From assembly GCF_003334405.1 (NCBI RefSeq), contig NZ_QOWM01000008.1: 64,000 bases of DNA, one strand, 5' to 3'. The notes beneath the pieces are model-generated. The model saw nothing but the letters and a program-made list of their open reading frames with translations. It had not been told where the DNA came from and searched no databases. The number at the start of each line of letters is the position of its first letter. Positions within the stretch are counted from its first letter, which is position 1. The translations under genes were made by a program, and so were the position numbers. The DNA comes from Escherichia coli (GTDB lineage: Bacteria; Pseudomonadota; Gammaproteobacteria; Enterobacterales; Enterobacteriaceae). Of the stretch, positions 1-19,410 are shown in pieces.

Positions 1-330
1 CGTGCGGGGGTTTTCTCTTTCCAGCAACCAATGCCACCAGGGATAAAGCCCCCGCAACATTGCGCCTCACCGGATAACGCCGGCTTGGTGTGGATACTAC
101 GACTCAATTCATCTTCACTTCATCCCTGAAATGTTTGCAATGAAGAGTGCATTCCGGTTTTTCAACAGCTGTTACAGTCATTTCATGAGTGCTCTGGATG
201 AGGCTTCCAGCTCGGGTTGCCAATATTTACTTGTGGAAGTGATAAAGACAAAAATGGCCGCAGGCTGTTACCCCTGCGGCCGGTTTCGGGCGCATATTGC
301 CATCACGGCAGCCTGACGCCCGTTTTCACC

Positions 331-438
331 TTACTTCCGGTTACGCCACCAGCTGACAATCGCTGCGGTAATAATTCCCGCCAGGATCGGTGCTGCCAGG
401 TCGTGCCAGAAAATCATGGCAAACTGCGCGAGCGTCAT
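331..438 (-). CDS. ldrB: Ldr-family small hydrophobic toxin, 35 aa (MTLAQFAMIFWHDLAAPILAGIITAAIVSWWRNRK)
   Basis: Hand translation of the reverse complement gives ATG...TAA, 35 codons, matching the Ldr toxin family; too short for the ORF track. Symbol assigned by position (second-to-last copy before chaA) and is tentative. Confidence 0.8.
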   Translation of the reverse strand: MTLAQFAMIFWHDLAAPILAGIITAAIVSWWRNRK

Positions 439-485
439 ATAGCCGCCTTGTTGTAATGACAACATTTTGCGGCTATTCTTGAAGT

Positions 486-552
486 GTCTGGTTTCAAGAT
501 TAGCCCCCGTTCTGTTGTCAGGTTTTACCTCTCAACGTGCGGGGGTTTTCTC
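486..552 (+). ncRNA. rdl: Rdl-like cis-antisense RNA (antitoxin) ending in an intrinsic terminator
   Basis: Plus-strand segment antisense to the ldr 5' leader, ending in CCCCCG...CGGGGG hairpin followed by TTTTCTCTTT; position agrees with known rdl placement about 50-120 bp beyond the ldr start. Boundaries approximate. An identical 3' end lies at 1-20. Confidence 0.5.
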
Positions 553-629
553 TTTCCAGCAACCAATGCCACCAGGGATAAAGCCCCCGCAACATTGCGC
601 CTCACCGGATAATTCCGGCTTGGTGTGGA

Positions 630-638
630 TACTACGTC
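630..638. repeat. IS10 target-site duplication, left copy (TACTACGTC)
   Basis: 9-bp direct repeat immediately flanking the IS10 outside end; identical 9-mer at 1968-1976. Confidence 0.9.
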
Positions 639-1967
639 CTGATGAATCCCCTAATGATTTTTATCAAAATCATTAAGTTAAGGTAGATACACATCTTGTC
701 ATATGATCAAATGGTTTCGCCAAAAATCAATAATCAGACAACAAAATGTGCGAACTCGATATTTTACACGACTCTCTTTACCAATTCTGCCCCGAATTAC
801 ACTTAAAACGACTCAACAGCTTAACGTTGGCTTGCCACGCCTTACTTGACTGTAAAACTCTCACTCTTACCGAACTTGGCCGTAACCTGCCAACCAAAGC
901 GAGAACAAAACATAACATCAAACGAATCGACCGATTGTTAGGTAATCGTCACCTCCACAAAGAGCGACTCGCTGTATACCGTTGGCATGCTAGCTTTATC
1001 TGTTCGGGCAATACGATGCCCATTGTACTTGTTGACTGGTCTGATATCCGTGAGCAAAAACGGCTTATGGTATTGCGAGCTTCAGTCGCACTACACGGTC
1101 GTTCTGTTACTCTTTATGAGAAAGCGTTCCCGCTTTCAGAGCAATGTTCAAAGAAAGCTCATGACCAATTTCTAGCCGACCTTGCGAGCATTCTACCGAG
1201 TAACACCACACCGCTCATTGTCAGTGATGCTGGCTTTAAAGTGCCATGGTATAAATCCGTTGAGAAGCTGGGTTGGTACTGGTTAAGTCGAGTAAGAGGA
1301 AAAGTACAATATGCAGACCTAGGAGCGGAAAACTGGAAACCTATCAGCAACTTACATGATATGTCATCTAGTCACTCAAAGACTTTAGGCTATAAGAGGC
1401 TGACTAAAAGCAATCCAATCTCATGCCAAATTCTATTGTATAAATCTCGCTCTAAAGGCCGAAAAAATCAGCGCTCGACACGGACTCATTGTCACCACCC
1501 GTCACCTAAAATCTACTCAGCGTCGGCAAAGGAGCCATGGATTCTAGCAACTAACTTACCTGTTGAAATTCGAACACCCAAACAACTTGTTAATATCTAT
1601 TCGAAGCGAATGCAGATTGAAGAAACCTTCCGAGACTTGAAAAGTCCTGCCTACGGACTAGGCCTACGCCATAGCCGAACGAGCAGCTCAGAGCGTTTTG
1701 ATATCATGCTGCTAATCGCCCTGATGCTTCAACTAACATGTTGGCTTGCGGGCGTTCATGCTCAGAAACAAGGTTGGGACAAGCACTTCCAGGCTAACAC
1801 AGTCAGAAATCGAAACGTACTCTCAACAGTTCGCTTAGGCATGGAAGTTTTGCGGCATTCTGGCTACACAATAACAAGGGAAGACTCACTCGTGGCTGCA
1901 ACCCTGCTTACTCAAAATCTATTCACACATGGTTACGTTTTGGGGAAATTATGAGGGGATCTCTCAG
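639..1967 (+). mobile_element. IS10: IS10 insertion sequence, complete, 1329 bp
   Basis: Outside end CTGATGAATCCCCTAATGATTTT at 639; inside end ...GAAATTATGAGGGGATCTCTCAG at 1945-1967; imperfect terminal inverted repeats; single 402-aa transposase ORF; 9-bp TSD. GATC sites at about 705 and 1957. Confidence 0.95.
746..1954 (+). CDS. IS10 transposase (IS4 family), 402 aa
   Basis: ORF track 746..1954; protein begins MCELDILHDSLYQFCPELHLKRL, matching the Tn10/IS10 transposase; start is 108 bp from the outside end as expected. Confidence 0.95.
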   Translation: MCELDILHDSLYQFCPELHLKRLNSLTLACHALLDCKTLTLTELGRNLPTKARTKHNIKRIDRLLGNRHLHKERLAVYRWHASFICSGNTMPIVLVDWSDIREQKRLMVLRASVALHGRSVTLYEKAFPLSEQCSKKAHDQFLADLASILPSNTTPLIVSDAGFKVPWYKSVEKLGWYWLSRVRGKVQYADLGAENWKPISNLHDMSSSHSKTLGYKRLTKSNPISCQILLYKSRSKGRKNQRSTRTHCHHPSPKIYSASAKEPWILATNLPVEIRTPKQLVNIYSKRMQIEETFRDLKSPAYGLGLRHSRTSSSERFDIMLLIALMLQLTCWLAGVHAQKQGWDKHFQANTVRNRNVLSTVRLGMEVLRHSGYTITREDSLVAATLLTQNLFTHGYVLGKL

Positions 1968-1976: not shown

Positions 1977-2203
1977 TCAATTCATCTTCACTTCATCCCT
2001 GAAATGTTTGCAATAAAGAGTACATTCCGGCTTTTCAACAGCTGTTGCAGTCGTTTCATGAGTGCTCTGGATGATGCTTCCAGCTCGGGTTGCCAATATT
2101 TACTTGTGGAAGAGATAAAGACAAAAATGGCCGCAGGCTGTTACCCCTGCGGCCGGTTTCGGGCGCATATTGCCATCACGGCAGCCTGACGCCCGTTTTC
2201 ACC

Positions 2204-2311
2204 TTACTTCCGGTTACGCCACCAGCTGACAATCGCTGCGGTAATAATTCCCGCCAGGATCGGTGCTGCCAGGTCGTGCCAGAAAATCATGGCAAACTGC
2301 GCGAGCGTCAT
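2204..2311 (-). CDS. ldrC: Ldr-family small hydrophobic toxin, 35 aa, identical to the copy at 331..438
   Basis: Same 108-nt sequence as 331..438; last LDR copy before chaA. Symbol by position, tentative. Confidence 0.8.
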   Translation of the reverse strand: MTLAQFAMIFWHDLAAPILAGIITAAIVSWWRNRK

Positions 2312-2358
2312 ATAGCCGCCTTGTTGTAATGACAACATTTTGCGGCTATTCTTGAAGT

Positions 2359-2425
2359 GTCTGGTTTCAAGATTAGCCCCCGTTTTGTTGTCAGGTTTTA
2401 CCTCTCAACGTGCGGGGGTTTTCTC
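2359..2425 (+). ncRNA. rdl: Rdl-like cis-antisense RNA (antitoxin)
   Basis: Same sequence as 486-552 with one T/C difference; hairpin plus U-tract terminator. Boundaries approximate. Confidence 0.5.
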
Positions 2426-2714
2426 TTTCCAGCAACCAATGCCACCAGGGATAAAGCCCCGCAACATTGCGCCTCACCGGATAACGCCGGCTTGGTGTGG
2501 ATACTACGTCGCAATTCATCTTCACTTCATCCCTGAAATGTTTGCAATGAAGAGTACATTCCGGCTTTTCAACAGCTGTTGCAGTGGTTTCGTGCAGGGT
2601 GTGGTACAGGCTCGCAATTCTGATTAACGACCTGTCCAGGTAGTATGAAGAAATACAATAAGCAGGAATTTATATTATCTCCCCCGATTACCGTCATCGG
2701 AGGAGATATAACTG

Positions 2715-3815
2715 TCAGGCAAATATCGTCATCAAATAGGCGGCAAACAGTGCCAGATGCGCTGCGCCATTGAGCACGTTAGTACGTCCGGTGGAGAAGG
2801 AGATATGGCACAGCACTAAAGAGGCCACCATCACCACCATTTCTGGCGCACCAAGTGCAAACTGCAATTCGTTACCCGTCATAAAGGCAATTAGCGTGAC
2901 GACAGGTACGGTAAGCGAAATGGTTGCTAACACTGAACCAAAGAACAGATTCATCGCGCGCTGAACCTGGTTGTTCAACACTGCTTTTAATGCACCTAAA
3001 CCTTCCGGCGACAGAATCAACAGTGCCACCAGGAAGCCAGTAAAGGCGACAGGGGCATTCATGCTGTCGAGCAATGTCTCCAGCGAGCTGGCGTTCATTT
3101 TGGTCACCGCAATAACGGCAATCAGATGGATAATCAACCAGATAGCATGCCACAGGCTGCTATGGGCAGACGGTTTACCGTGATGCGGGTCGTCATCATC
3201 ACTGTCATCTTCGTGCTCGTAGACAAACAAACTTTGATGCGTTTTGGTCTGGATCAGCAAAAATACGCCATACATTGCCGCAGAAATTAATGCTACCAGT
3301 AACGCCTGACCGGTTGAAAAATTCGCCGCAGGCAGAGCCATTGGAAATACCAGTACGATTATCGCCAGGGGGAACAGCGCAATTAAATACTGCTTGATAC
3401 CAAACAGATTCATATATTGGGTGGCAAACTTACGACCGCCCAACAATAATGAAAAGCCAACCAGCCCACCGGTAACAATCATAATGATTGAATAGAGCGT
3501 ATCACGCATTAGCGTTGGCGCGGCGTCGCCGGTTGCCATTAAAGCTGAAATCAAACTGACTTCAAGAATAACCACTGAAAGGCTAAGAATAAGCGAACCG
3601 TAAGGTTCTCCCAGGCGATGGGCTAATACGTCCGCATGACGGACAACACTAAAGGCGCTACTTAAAATACCAATAAGCGCAAGAAGATTGATGGCAATGA
3701 CCACTGGTAGTGTCTGGCTGCTTCCCCACAGGAACAGCACTACCAGCGCCAGAACCGGGAAAATAAGCGAAGTCTCCTTGTGGCGGGTTTTTACCGCCTC
3801 TTGAGCATTTGACAT
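2715..3815 (-). CDS. chaA: Ca2+/H+ (Na+/H+) antiporter ChaA, 366 aa
   Basis: ORF track 2715..3902; start trimmed to internal ATG (MSNAQEAVKTRH...) to match known ChaA length; multi-pass membrane protein with acidic loop. Confidence 0.9.
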   Translation of the reverse strand: MSNAQEAVKTRHKETSLIFPVLALVVLFLWGSSQTLPVVIAINLLALIGILSSAFSVVRHADVLAHRLGEPYGSLILSLSVVILEVSLISALMATGDAAPTLMRDTLYSIIMIVTGGLVGFSLLLGGRKFATQYMNLFGIKQYLIALFPLAIIVLVFPMALPAANFSTGQALLVALISAAMYGVFLLIQTKTHQSLFVYEHEDDSDDDDPHHGKPSAHSSLWHAIWLIIHLIAVIAVTKMNASSLETLLDSMNAPVAFTGFLVALLILSPEGLGALKAVLNNQVQRAMNLFFGSVLATISLTVPVVTLIAFMTGNELQFALGAPEMVVMVASLVLCHISFSTGRTNVLNGAAHLALFAAYLMTIFA

Positions 3816-7795: not shown

Positions 7796-9584
7796 GGGTA
7801 TCTCCTTGGACGTCTGTGAAAGTTTTTTCGGGAATAAAGGTGACCACCACTTCGGTGCCACCTGATTCACGACGGCGGACGCGGCAATCGCCTCGTAAAC
7901 TTTGCGCACGATCGCGCATTATTATCATGCCGTAGTGATTGCTGCGGATGGCATTTTCAGGCACGCCGCAGCCGTTATCCTGGACGGTCAGTTTGACCTG
8001 ATTATCGTTTTGCGCCACCGTCACCACGACTTCACTCGCTTGCGAATGTTTGAGGGCGTTACTTAATGCCTCACGGGCAATTTGCAACAAGTGGATTGCC
8101 TGATGCGAAGGCACCAGGCGAGGCGGCAATTGATAATCCAGCTTCACCGGGAAGCCAAATTTGGCGCTGTACTCTTCGCAACTCGCCTCCAGCGCCGGAC
8201 GTAATCCAGGCTCGGTGAGCTGCAAGCGGAATGTGGTGAGCAATTCACGCAACTGCGCCCAGGATGCATTCAGTTCGTTACGGATCTGACTTAACAGTTC
8301 GCGGCTGCTTTCTGGCAGCGCATCGCCCTGCATCTGTAAACAACTCACCTGCATCTTCATGCAAGAGAGAGATTGGGCAATAGAATCATGCAGTTCGCGC
8401 GCAATGGTGGCACGCTCTTCCATCACGATCAACTGTTGCTGACGTTCCTGATGGCGATCCAGCGCCAGCGTGGCGGTGAGTTGTTCAACCAGGGTATCCA
8501 CCAGTTGTTGTTGATCATGGCTAAGATGACGCCCCTGCGGCAGGGTCGCCAGCAAAATACCGTACTGCGTATGAGAGTCAGCCAGCCGCCACTTCAGGGT
8601 CGTGCCGCGATCACCAACGGGTAATACGCCGCGCGGGCAGAGCTGGCAGCCTTTATCATCACAAGTCATATCTGGCTGGCAGGTAAACTCCTGATGATTC
8701 TCTTCATCATCAGTGTCATACACCCGCAATTCGATATCACGTAGCAGGGTTAAATTCTGTAAGCCGTTGAGTACAGGTGACAGGCGTTCACACAGCGGGG
8801 CGCGGGAATGCAAACGGCGGTTAGCCTGCCATAAAAAAGAGAGGATCTGATTTTTATGCTCCAGCCCGGCGGTTTTCTCCTGAACCCGCTGCTCAAGTAC
8901 GGCATAACTTTCGGCCAGTTCTGCAGACATATTGTTCAACGCAGTTCCAAGCATCGCCATTTCGTTGCGCCCGCTGATGTTTGCGCGTTGGGTAAAATCG
9001 CGATGACTGACGGCACTCGCCATTGCCAGCAGTTGCCGCCACGGTTGTAGCAGTCGCGCCCGCAACCAGATAATAGTGAACACCAGTAAAAGTGCCATAA
9101 ATACCGCCATTACCCGATGGACCAGTACCACTGTCTCGATGCGCATTTCCGTGGTGCGGTCAAAACCAGATACCAGTTGATCAAGCCCGGCAACAAACTG
9201 GCTGACATCCGCTGACACCGTTTCTCGGTTTTGTGCACGCATCAGCGCAGGGATCAGTTCATTACGCCAGTAATCTTGTAAACCCTGTAATTGCGCCAGT
9301 TGTCCGTCTCGTTCTGCTGCTCGAGTCAACTCGGCGCTAAATGCCGTTTGTTCCATCTCTTTAATTAAGGGCTTGTCTTTCTCGCTTAATGGCACTGCCG
9401 CCAACAGACGGTAACTTTGCATGCGCAGCGATCCCGCTTTGTTGATCGCATGGGCGCTGCCCTGAACGCCTTGCACCAGCCAGCCAGAAACCGCCATCCC
9501 TGCCAGTCCAATAGCAGTAGAAAGCAACACAATAAGCGCAACCTGATTAACCAGGGTGAGCGGAGAGAGACAACGTTTAAGCAT
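7788..9584 (-). CDS. narX: Nitrate/nitrite sensor histidine kinase NarX, 598 aa
   Basis: ORF track; overlaps narL start by 8 nt. Confidence 0.95.
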
Positions 9585-9849
9585 GTAAACCTCTTCCTTC
9601 AGGCTTTAAATGAGCAATAACCTTAATGAATGTGACGATACATTCTGGAATGGCAGTATTCTCGGCTATTGGCTGAAGTATACCCATACCCGGAAAGAGT
9701 TACTCCTTATTTGCCGTGTGGTTAGTCGCTTTACATCGGTAAGGGTAGGGATTTTACAGCACCGTGAAAAATCTCATAATTTTTATGAAGTCACTGTACT
9801 CACTATGGGTAATGATAAATATCAATGATAGATAAAGTTATCTTATCGT

Positions 9850-9863
9850 TTGATTTACATCAA
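9850..9863. promoter_or_regulatory. FNR box TTGATttacATCAA in the narK promoter
   Basis: Perfect FNR consensus palindrome about 60-70 bp upstream of narK; NarL-heptamer-like TACYYMT motifs nearby. Confidence 0.7.
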
Positions 9864-9922
9864 ATTGCCTTTAGCTACAGACACTAAGGTGGCAGACATC
9901 GAAACGAGTATCAGAGGTGTCT

Positions 9923-11314
9923 ATGAGTCACTCATCCGCCCCCGAAAGGGCTACTGGAGCTGTCATTACAGATTGGCGACCGGAAGATCCTGCGTTCTGG
10001 CAACAACGCGGTCAACGTATTGCCAGCCGCAACCTGTGGATTTCCGTTCCCTGTCTGCTGCTGGCGTTTTGCGTATGGATGTTGTTCAGCGCTGTTGCGG
10101 TGAACCTACCGAAAGTCGGCTTTAATTTTACGACCGATCAGCTATTTATGTTGACTGCGCTGCCTTCGGTTTCTGGCGCGTTATTACGTGTTCCATACTC
10201 CTTTATGGTTCCTATCTTCGGTGGTCGTCGCTGGACGGCGTTCAGCACCGGTATTCTGATTATTCCTTGCGTCTGGCTGGGTTTTGCCGTGCAGGATACC
10301 TCCACGCCTTATAGCGTCTTCATCATCATCTCTCTGCTATGCGGCTTTGCTGGCGCGAACTTCGCATCCAGTATGGCAAACATCAGCTTCTTCTTTCCGA
10401 AACAGAAGCAGGGTGGCGCGCTGGGTCTGAATGGTGGTCTGGGAAACATGGGCGTCAGCGTCATGCAGTTGGTTGCTCCGCTGGTGGTATCACTGTCGAT
10501 TTTCGCAGTATTTGGTAGCCAGGGCGTCAAACAGCCGGATGGGACTGAGCTGTATCTGGCGAATGCGTCCTGGATATGGGTGCCGTTCCTTGCCATCTTC
10601 ACCATTGCGGCGTGGTTTGGCATGAACGATCTTGCTACCTCGAAAGCCTCCATCAAGGAGCAGTTGCCGGTACTCAAACGGGGTCATCTGTGGATTATGA
10701 GCCTGCTGTATCTGGCAACCTTCGGCTCCTTCATCGGCTTCTCCGCGGGCTTTGCAATGCTGTCAAAAACGCAGTTCCCGGATGTTCAGATTCTGCAATA
10801 CGCTTTCTTCGGGCCGTTTATTGGTGCGCTGGCGCGTTCTGCAGGTGGTGCATTATCTGACCGTCTGGGCGGAACTCGTGTCACGCTGGTGAACTTTATT
10901 CTGATGGCGATTTTCAGCGGCCTGCTGTTCCTGACCTTACCGACTGACGGGCAGGGCGGAAGCTTCATGGCGTTCTTCGCGGTCTTCCTGGCGCTGTTCC
11001 TGACAGCTGGGCTGGGTAGTGGTTCCACTTTCCAGATGATTTCAGTGATCTTCCGTAAACTGACAATGGATCGCGTGAAAGCAGAAGGGGGTTCTGACGA
11101 ACGTGCGATGCGTGAAGCGGCAACCGACACGGCGGCGGCGCTGGGTTTCATCTCTGCGATTGGCGCGATTGGTGGCTTCTTTATCCCGAAAGCGTTTGGT
11201 AGCTCGCTGGCATTAACGGGTTCGCCAGTCGGCGCAATGAAGGTATTTTTGATTTTCTATATCGCCTGCGTAGTGATTACCTGGGCGGTATATGGTCGGC
11301 ATTCTAAAAAATAA
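9923..11314 (+). CDS. narK: Nitrate/nitrite transporter NarK (MFS), 463 aa
   Basis: ORF track 9917..11314; start placed at MSHSSAPERATGAV... Confidence 0.95.
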   Translation: MSHSSAPERATGAVITDWRPEDPAFWQQRGQRIASRNLWISVPCLLLAFCVWMLFSAVAVNLPKVGFNFTTDQLFMLTALPSVSGALLRVPYSFMVPIFGGRRWTAFSTGILIIPCVWLGFAVQDTSTPYSVFIIISLLCGFAGANFASSMANISFFFPKQKQGGALGLNGGLGNMGVSVMQLVAPLVVSLSIFAVFGSQGVKQPDGTELYLANASWIWVPFLAIFTIAAWFGMNDLATSKASIKEQLPVLKRGHLWIMSLLYLATFGSFIGFSAGFAMLSKTQFPDVQILQYAFFGPFIGALARSAGGALSDRLGGTRVTLVNFILMAIFSGLLFLTLPTDGQGGSFMAFFAVFLALFLTAGLGSGSTFQMISVIFRKLTMDRVKAEGGSDERAMREAATDTAAALGFISAIGAIGGFFIPKAFGSSLALTGSPVGAMKVFLIFYIACVVITWAVYGRHSKK

Positions 11315-18610: not shown

Positions 18611-18674
18611 GTAAACGTGGTGCCATCGGGCAAAATTAGCTCGGAGTAACAGGTTTTGATTATTTAAGGAAGCG

Positions 18675-19410
<736 letters not shown>

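Follow-up and report, generated by a model that had tools for sequence, protein, structure and literature searches.

Introduction

Read-out from the pOUT promoter of IS10/Tn10 reportedly activates adjacent genes, as Ciampi, Schmid and Roth are said to have described in 1982 and Simons and co-workers in 1983. Olliver is likewise said to have found, in 2005, activation of acrEF in Salmonella by IS10, and Martinez-Garcia reportedly described the OUTIIp promoter of IS10 in 2003. RNA-OUT, 70 nt long, is the form in which most pOUT transcripts are recovered. Some pOUT transcripts reach neighbouring genes, at about 10% of lacUV5 according to PMC9330008 (value from Simons 1983), and PMC4574204 invokes IS10 outward promoters for the activation of cat and acrEF. 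Ends of insertion sequences such as IS1, IS2 and ISAba125 can also form hybrid promoters, in which the insertion sequence supplies a -35 element to a resident -10.

The Ldr/Rdl loci of Escherichia coli K-12 comprise the repeats LDR-A, LDR-B and LDR-C by chaA, together with LDR-D. Toxicity of the LdrD peptide and its repression by RdlD have been reported in the literature. The ldr genes in general appear hok/sok-like, with a long 5' leader, an antisense target upstream of the ORF and modelled pairing between the start region and the 3' UTR.

Here we describe an IS10 in the promoter of an ldr gene, found in a 64,000-nt stretch of E. coli DNA (contig NZ_QOWM01000008.1 of assembly GCF_003334405.1), hereafter called the window. 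As in the IS10/Tn10 activation cases, an intact IS10 with the same pOUT sequence faces a same-strand gene with its outside end, over a terminator-free path. Unlike in those cases, the downstream gene encodes a toxin and appears to retain its resident -10 and start site as well as its antisense control. As in the hybrid promoters, the joint falls exactly between a resident -10 and the place a -35 would take, but the IS10 outside end differs from theirs in carrying no -35-like hexamer at 16–18 bp (at most 2/6 matches). The locus, the 35-aa peptide, Rdl, the leader and the terminator are those known from K-12, and the flanks are 99.5–100% identical to MG1655. Compared with K-12, the middle repeat of the window has the IS10 in its promoter and encodes an LdrA/LdrC-type peptide, whereas the K-12 peptide is of the LdrB type. 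No earlier description of an IS10 at an ldr promoter emerged from a literature search. The instance is new, while its components, and pOUT read-out into neighbours, are already known for IS10 and Ldr/Rdl.

Results

A complete IS10 interrupts the middle repeat of the ldr/rdl array

The window opens with 2.7 kb of ldr/rdl long direct repeats, an array located ahead of chaA (Table 1). The interrupted and the uninterrupted ldr ORFs encode identical peptides of 35 aa, hydrophobic as in the Ldr/Rdl type I toxin–antitoxin systems. Single-nucleotide differences distinguish the two copies, such as C at 513 against T at the corresponding position 2386 of the intact one. In the interrupted copy, Rdl lies opposite the ldr 5' leader, clear of the ORF and 48 nt upstream of the ATG, in the arrangement of a cis-antisense RNA. 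The rdl promoter candidate, 7 nt ahead of the start of Rdl, was left intact by the insertion. The 3' end of the ldr mRNA was predicted near position 248, and a terminator element identical to that of the interrupted copy serves the second one. The Rfam model of the hok/sok region gave only a weak match of 29 bits, below its threshold.

Table 1. Positions of the IS10 insertion, the ldr/rdl array and their predicted regulatory elements in the window
Feature	Position	Strand	Remarks
Complete IS10 (ISVsa5 / IS10-Left-type sequence)	639-1967	+	1329 bp
IS10 outside end, CTGATGAATCCCC	starts 639
IS10 inside end, ...GGGGATCTCTCAG	stops 1967
IS10 transposase ORF, intact	746-1954	+	402 aa; begins at IS nt 108
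9-bp target-site duplication, TACTACGTC	630-638 (left), 1968-1976 (right)		minus-strand reading GACGTAGTA
RNA-OUT antisense RNA	753..684	-	Rfam RF00240, 97.3 bits; 5' end 753 = pOUT start (IS10 nt 115)
pOUT promoter region	754..795	-	-10 TAAAAT at 766..761; same in the other Tn10 copy
Predicted ldr transcription start, A of CCAAGCC	621	-	homology with paralogue ldrD
Presumptive ldr -10 hexamer, TAGTAT	634..629	-	overlaps target duplication; stays with ldr
ldr 5' untranslated leader with Rdl target	439..621	-	183 nt; ldrD start mapped via alignment
Interrupted (middle-repeat) ldr toxin ORF	331-438	-	35 aa, LdrA/LdrC-type peptide MTLAQFAMIFWHDLAAPILAGIITAAIVSWWRNRK; aligned with MG1655 ldrA/B/C/D
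ldr intrinsic terminator, GGCCGCAGG-loop-CCTGCGGCC, then T-run	256..281	-	terminator scan
Rdl antisense antitoxin RNA, middle copy	486-551	+	Rfam RF01813, 91.4 bits, full-length model match
rdl promoter candidate, TTGTAA (451-456)-17 nt-TATTCT (474-479)	451-479	+	predicted from sequence
Orphaned upstream half of ldr promoter	1977..2030	-	faces IS10 inside end
Second, uninterrupted ldr ORF	2204-2311	-	-10 TAGTAT 2506..2501, predicted start 2493
Terminator element of second ldr copy	2129-2154		identical to that of interrupted copy
Rdl of uninterrupted copy	2359-2424	+	Rfam RF01813, full-length (both copies 91-92 bits)
chaA	2715-3902	-

The inserted element was 100% identical over 1329 bp to positions 36132-37460 of R100 (NC_002134.1), and its transposase ORF was nucleotide-identical to the R100 gene annotated WP_001352368.1. 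The near-perfect terminal inverted repeats (CTGATGAATCCCC ... GGGGATCTCTCAG) are those of an IS4 family member. The matching R100 copy adjoins gltS/jemA of Tn10 and is the gltS-proximal copy, which we take to be IS10-Left from the published Tn10 map; the tetD-proximal copy of R100 differed from the window IS10 at 15 positions. When positions 561-638 and 1977-2040 were joined, the resulting empty site matched both E. coli C and MG1655 exactly, and the event was therefore a clean simple insertion of IS10. The exact arrangement of the window was absent from all 5426 complete RefSeq E. coli genomes. The assignments of IS10, Rdl and RNA-OUT are database-grade matches, and chance resemblance is ruled out.

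Outside the IS10, the window was 99.9–99.98% identical to MG1655 1270002-1320001. It lacked the IS5 that MG1655 carries between ychE and oppA and had one extra 178-bp RtT repeat. The 12 kb following the IS10 were 100% identical to many phylogroup-A strains, E. coli C among them. A K-12 derivative as the source was rejected on the basis of about 30 mismatches in 49 kb relative to MG1655, the missing ychE–oppA IS5 and the extra RtT repeat. By these comparisons, the host is a phylogroup-A, K-12-like E. coli of natural or laboratory origin, with a K-12 derivative excluded.

A sequence-only reading of this stretch had placed the IS10 outside end about 200 bp upstream of the ldr ATG and about 85 bp past the 3' end of Rdl. 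The distances measured were 201 bp and, with the Rfam boundaries of Rdl, 88 bp, in agreement with both estimates.

The insertion joint lies just upstream of the presumptive ldr -10 hexamer

In the dRNA-seq data of Thomason 2015, as tabulated in supplementary table 1 of PMC7967276, the transcription start of ldrD is MG1655 3700272 and that of rdlD is 3700136. The ldrD ORF occupies 3699980-3700087, so that transcription starts 185 nt upstream of the ATG. This start was transferred from the paralogue ldrD, an LDR-D-type copy, to the A/B/C-type copies through an alignment of MG1655 LDR-D, LDR-A, LDR-B and LDR-C with both window copies, in which two 1-nt indels were allowed for. The ldrD start aligned to the invariant A of CC-A-AGCCGG, which is position 621 in the interrupted copy and 2493 in the intact copy. 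The hexamer 8 nt upstream of the aligned start was TAGAAT in LDR-D and TAGTAT in all A/B/C-type copies. Mapping of the start to 621 makes the TAGTAT at 634..629 the presumptive -10 and would place the joint between 638 and 639 at about -17/-18, that is, some 17–18 bp upstream of the predicted ldr start.

The sequence-only reading had suggested that the target duplication overlaps a TAGTAT serving as the native ldr -10 and that the native -35 position is now taken up by IS10. It had also named a finding that would overturn it, a complete promoter on the ldr side of the insertion. Homology with ldrD supported both suggestions: it identifies the TAGTAT as the presumptive -10, and everything upstream of about -17/-18 is IS10 sequence; a promoter wholly below the joint was not what the mapped start indicated. 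The -10, start site, leader, Rdl target, rdl with its promoter candidate, ORF and terminator are all intact after the insertion, and the DNA upstream of about -17 is replaced by the IS10 outside end. Beside the inside end, the orphaned upstream half of the promoter adjoins the duplicated GACGTAGTA followed by C, so that its -10 reads TAGTAC and has lost the critical T at -7.

The contribution of the lost DNA was assessed by comparing the promoters. Homology between LDR-D and LDR-A/B/C starts 3 nt upstream of the -10, with no shared sequence upstream of about -16, and a good -35 was absent from the LDR-D and LDR-A/B/C promoters alike (2–3/6 matches at 16–18 bp spacing). Because the -35 is poor and unconserved between LDR-D and LDR-A/B/C, the lost native upstream DNA may matter little, and its loss may have a smaller effect than the term "displaced promoter" used in the sequence-only reading implies. 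In the IS10 outside end, TCATTA (17 bp) and ATCATT (18 bp) each matched TTGACA at 2/6 positions and CATTAG (16 bp) at 0/6. With at most 2/6 matches, a hybrid -35/-10 promoter created by IS10 at the joint was ruled out.

A consensus promoter scan of positions 1-2720 returned zero sites at its threshold. The scan was uninformative, because the pOUT region and the rdl promoter candidate went undetected as well. An entry for ldrD was not found in the Reg-Seq supplement.

pOUT is directed into the ldr sense strand

The single RNA-OUT match lay on the ldr-sense strand, oriented toward position 639, as would be predicted for the antisense RNA of IS10. RNA-OUT shares the minus strand with ldr, and pOUT is therefore sense toward ldr; it is directed into the ldr sense strand from a point 132 bp before the native start. 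The region of IS10 that contains pOUT (nt 108-409) showed zero differences between the two R100 Tn10 copies, indicating that pOUT is canonical. The terminator scan from 753 to 282 gave no terminator-like site on the minus strand, and the A/U-rich hairpin at the end of IS10 lacks a downstream U-run. These results bear out the proposed geometry, in which pOUT points outward into the ldr leader and ORF, sense to the toxin. An intact outward promoter on the same strand as ldr with a terminator-free path is consistent with IS-driven activation. Any activation of ldr by pOUT may be masked post-transcriptionally; long untranslated read-through RNA could also be terminated by Rho, in which case read-through may be small.

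The predicted native ldr mRNA extends from 621 to 248 (374 nt) and the pOUT read-through RNA from 753 to 248 (506 nt). Both were folded with ViennaRNA. The predicted minimum-energy fold of the native RNA has the Shine-Dalgarno/AUG region base-paired to the 3' UTR in a hok-like manner. The 132-nt 5' extension of the read-through RNA was predicted to form two self-contained hairpins, that of RNA-OUT and one at the outside end. The mean unpaired probability of the Shine-Dalgarno/AUG region was 0.47 in the native and 0.47 in the read-through RNA, and the site targeted by the Rdl 5' tail had a value of 0.51 in both, suggesting the same predicted accessibility of these two sites with and without the extension.

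Related insertions in other genomes

Two of the 5426 complete E. coli genomes, 23CRST001 and IAL7254, carried an IS10 outside end beside an ldr leader, at the window site or within 13 bp of it, and in both the IS10 had the orientation seen in the window. A synthetic query for the opposite orientation, with the inside end facing the ldr leader, matched none of the complete E. coli genomes. Strain 23CRST001 (human faeces, Ecuador) has the same target duplication as the window, with flanks that are about 1% diverged. Two nucleotides of its IS10, nt 410 and 425, differ from the window copy and agree with the other Tn10 copy. This IS10 sits immediately ahead of chaA, upstream of the last copy of ldr, whereas the window IS10 precedes the penultimate copy.

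In IAL7254 (human faeces, Brazil), the IS10 sequence is that of the window copy and the flanks have 3 mismatches in 4.3 kb. The insertion lies 13 bp closer to ldr and, because its target duplication (GGCTTGGTG) differs, represents an independent event. Its -10 is on the far side of the IS10, and the ldr leader now starts CACC-AAGCC. A second insertion sequence in the same genome precedes the ldrA ATG by 13 bp and severs the ORF from its leader and promoter.

The window site matched the IS10 target consensus NGCTNAGCN at 3/6 positions and the IAL7254 site at 4/6, which is in the top ~2% of the region. With only 3/6 matches at the window site, a consensus hot spot was rejected as the sole cause of the recurrence. 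When metagenomes were scanned for the two IS10 ends between +3 and -28 relative to the ldr start, 0 matches were obtained, probably due to assemblies breaking at insertion sequences and repeats. Overall, two to three same-orientation events within 13 bp are suggestive of local target preference, tolerance or selection, and non-significant (orientation P = 0.25).

Discussion

The locus is probably explained by simple cut-and-paste transposition, in which an intact IS10 entered the promoter of the middle ldr/rdl repeat, with mixed transcription from the residual -10 and pOUT and a nearly neutral outcome. The interrupted copy would receive transcripts both from remaining initiation at the -10 it has kept and from read-through of pOUT, and total ldr mRNA could rise or fall. 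The read-through RNA, of about 506 nt versus 374 nt for the native RNA, would begin with the RNA-OUT hairpin. Rdl and the folding of the mRNA would go on blocking toxin translation. The chimeric RNA retains the site where Rdl pairs and, by prediction, the pairing of the start region with the 3' UTR, so toxin translation should stay repressed; with translation repressed, the insertion should be nearly neutral. Isolates with the same or a nearby insertion are viable.

The insertion could, on the other hand, be a pure knock-down. Loss of the DNA upstream of -17 would then cripple the ldr promoter, pOUT RNAs would end as RNA-OUT or by Rho, and the silenced copy would persist since losing one redundant toxin copy costs nothing or helps slightly. 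We regard this as unlikely, yet as deserving serious weight. The IS10 end offers 2/6 matches to TTGACA at 17–18 bp and 0/6 at 16 bp, in keeping with a crippled promoter, but the native -35 region is equally poor (2–3/6) and unconserved between LDR-D and LDR-A/B/C and may contribute little in the first place. The independent IS10 of IAL7254, 13 bp closer, takes away the -10 too, and the insertion sequence upstream of the ldrA ATG in that genome indicates that disconnection of an ldr ORF from its promoter is evidently tolerated. Silencing is harder to reconcile with the path into ldr, which has no intrinsic terminator, and with pOUT read-out into adjacent genes, which is experimentally documented (PMC4574204, PMC9330008).

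Selection could instead have favoured the rewiring, if control of ldr by pOUT is beneficial or the reverse orientation harmful, and would thereby account for recurrent same-orientation IS10 within 13 bp. Such a history seems improbable to us. An outside end facing the ldr leader was seen in 2/5426 complete genomes and an inside end in 0, the IAL7254 duplication marks an independent event, and the window site is a mediocre one at 3/6 of the consensus; however, three events would share a single orientation by chance with a probability of 0.25, and the target preferences of IS10 are marked and captured incompletely by a 6-bp consensus, the IAL7254 site being at 4/6 in the top ~2%. The 23CRST001 insertion shares the duplication of the window; its 2-nt IS10 difference, its ~1% diverged flanks and its place at the last rather than the penultimate ldr copy would fit a further event, but it could be the same event relocated by recombination. 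In addition, intergenic repeats are permissive landing sites, and the metagenome scan of the interval found neither IS10 end. A more specific form has a slimmer chance still: a recurrent, selected IS10 whose constitutive pOUT replaces a possibly regulated ldr promoter and yields a chimeric RNA-OUT–ldr mRNA, which would tie the toxin to antisense control by IS10, for instance through RNA-IN, as titrant or as the titrated species. Least probable of all, and very much so, is an artefact in which the IS10 came from the laboratory or the assembly and is absent from the chromosome of the organism. IS10 hops in laboratory E. coli and into cloned DNA according to the literature, and the exact arrangement occurs in 0/5426 complete RefSeq genomes. 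Against this stand the perfect 9-bp duplication with its exact empty site and the two independent complete genomes from human faeces with equivalent insertions; moreover, the host DNA is E. coli itself, and real transposition is the simplest explanation even if it took place in culture.

Beyond the placement of the promoter and its value as a test, the locus is a routine insertion polymorphism that poses no challenge to current understanding. The comparison provides a sequence-level placement of the -10 and the start site for the A/B/C ldr repeats. If pOUT drives the interrupted ldr copy, the locus would be a natural test of silencing by Rdl and the mRNA fold under a promoter swap and a 5' extension, for which the intact sister ldr copy 1.9 kb away is a built-in control.

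Promoters and transcription around the IS10 insertion

In the alignment of the four MG1655 ldr paralogues with both ldr copies of the window, homology between LDR-D and LDR-A/B/C reaches no more than 3 nt beyond the -10 hexamer on its upstream side. No common -35 region was found between the LDR-D and LDR-A/B/C promoters in this alignment, and a good -35 is absent from both.

The outward promoters pIII and OUTIIp lie near the inside end of IS10, at IS nt 1000-1230 (PMC11481808). These promoters, together with any transposase read-through, aim antisense at the ldr copy beyond the inside end, whose terminator is 160 bp away. Because of this orientation, that seemingly intact copy may not be a fully undisturbed control. 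On the other side, rdl faces the IS10 outside end and the transposase gene in sense orientation, 88 bp away, and any read-through of the Rdl terminator would run into IS10.

Positions of the features discussed
Feature	Sequence	Position	Strand
RF01794 match, leader of middle ldr copy	window	436-588	-
RF01794 match, second ldr leader	window	2309-2460	-
Start of LDR-D homology	window	~636-640; 2508-2512	
IS10	window	639-1967	
gltS/jemA-proximal IS10	R100	9133-10461 of the extracted region	
pIII/OUTIIp and transposase read-through	window	1000-1967	+
Antisense target, 'intact' ldr copy	window	2129-2311	
rdl	window	486-639 (rdl to the IS10 outside end)	+
Middle ldr copy	window	331-438	
Second IS	IAL7254	2405-3500 of the extracted region	
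Site of missing IS5	window	~31283-31286	
RtT repeats (RF00391)	window	18670-19410	

IS10 variant at the ldr sites

Sequence comparison showed no difference between the window IS10 and the gltS/jemA-proximal copy in Tn10 of plasmid R100 (NC_002134.1), which is IS10-Left on the published map. IS10-Left is classically the poorly active copy of Tn10. The ldr-site IS10 of E. coli IAL7254 is the same variant, and that of the complete E. coli genome 23CRST001 is this variant with two changes. Several of the plasmids among the matches listed also carry the variant, as a single copy at 100% identity.

In IAL7254, the ldrA ORF is separated from the rdlA promoter and leader by a second IS, which carries the annotation of an incomplete integrase-core protein and is inserted 13 bp before the ldrA start codon. 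Of the three ldr copies in IAL7254, two are thus severed from their promoters.

Peptide types and mRNA fold

The middle ldr copy encodes an LdrA/C-type peptide (…MIFW…VSWW…); at this position, K-12 and E. coli C encode an LdrB-type peptide (…MTFW…VGWW…). The peptide sequence suggests gene conversion or unequal crossing-over inside the array.

The Rfam hok/sok-region model RF01794 weakly matched the leaders of the middle (29 bits, E = 4.5e-4) and second (27 bits, E = 2e-3) ldr copies, both below the gathering score. In the predicted ldr mRNA fold, the SD/AUG region is paired with the 3' UTR. The match and the predicted fold together hint at a hok-like fold-back architecture.

Wider comparison with MG1655

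The IS5 (IS5U) present between ychE and oppA in MG1655 is missing from the window. The RtT repeats comprise three units with two tRNA genes, one unit of 178 bp more than in MG1655.
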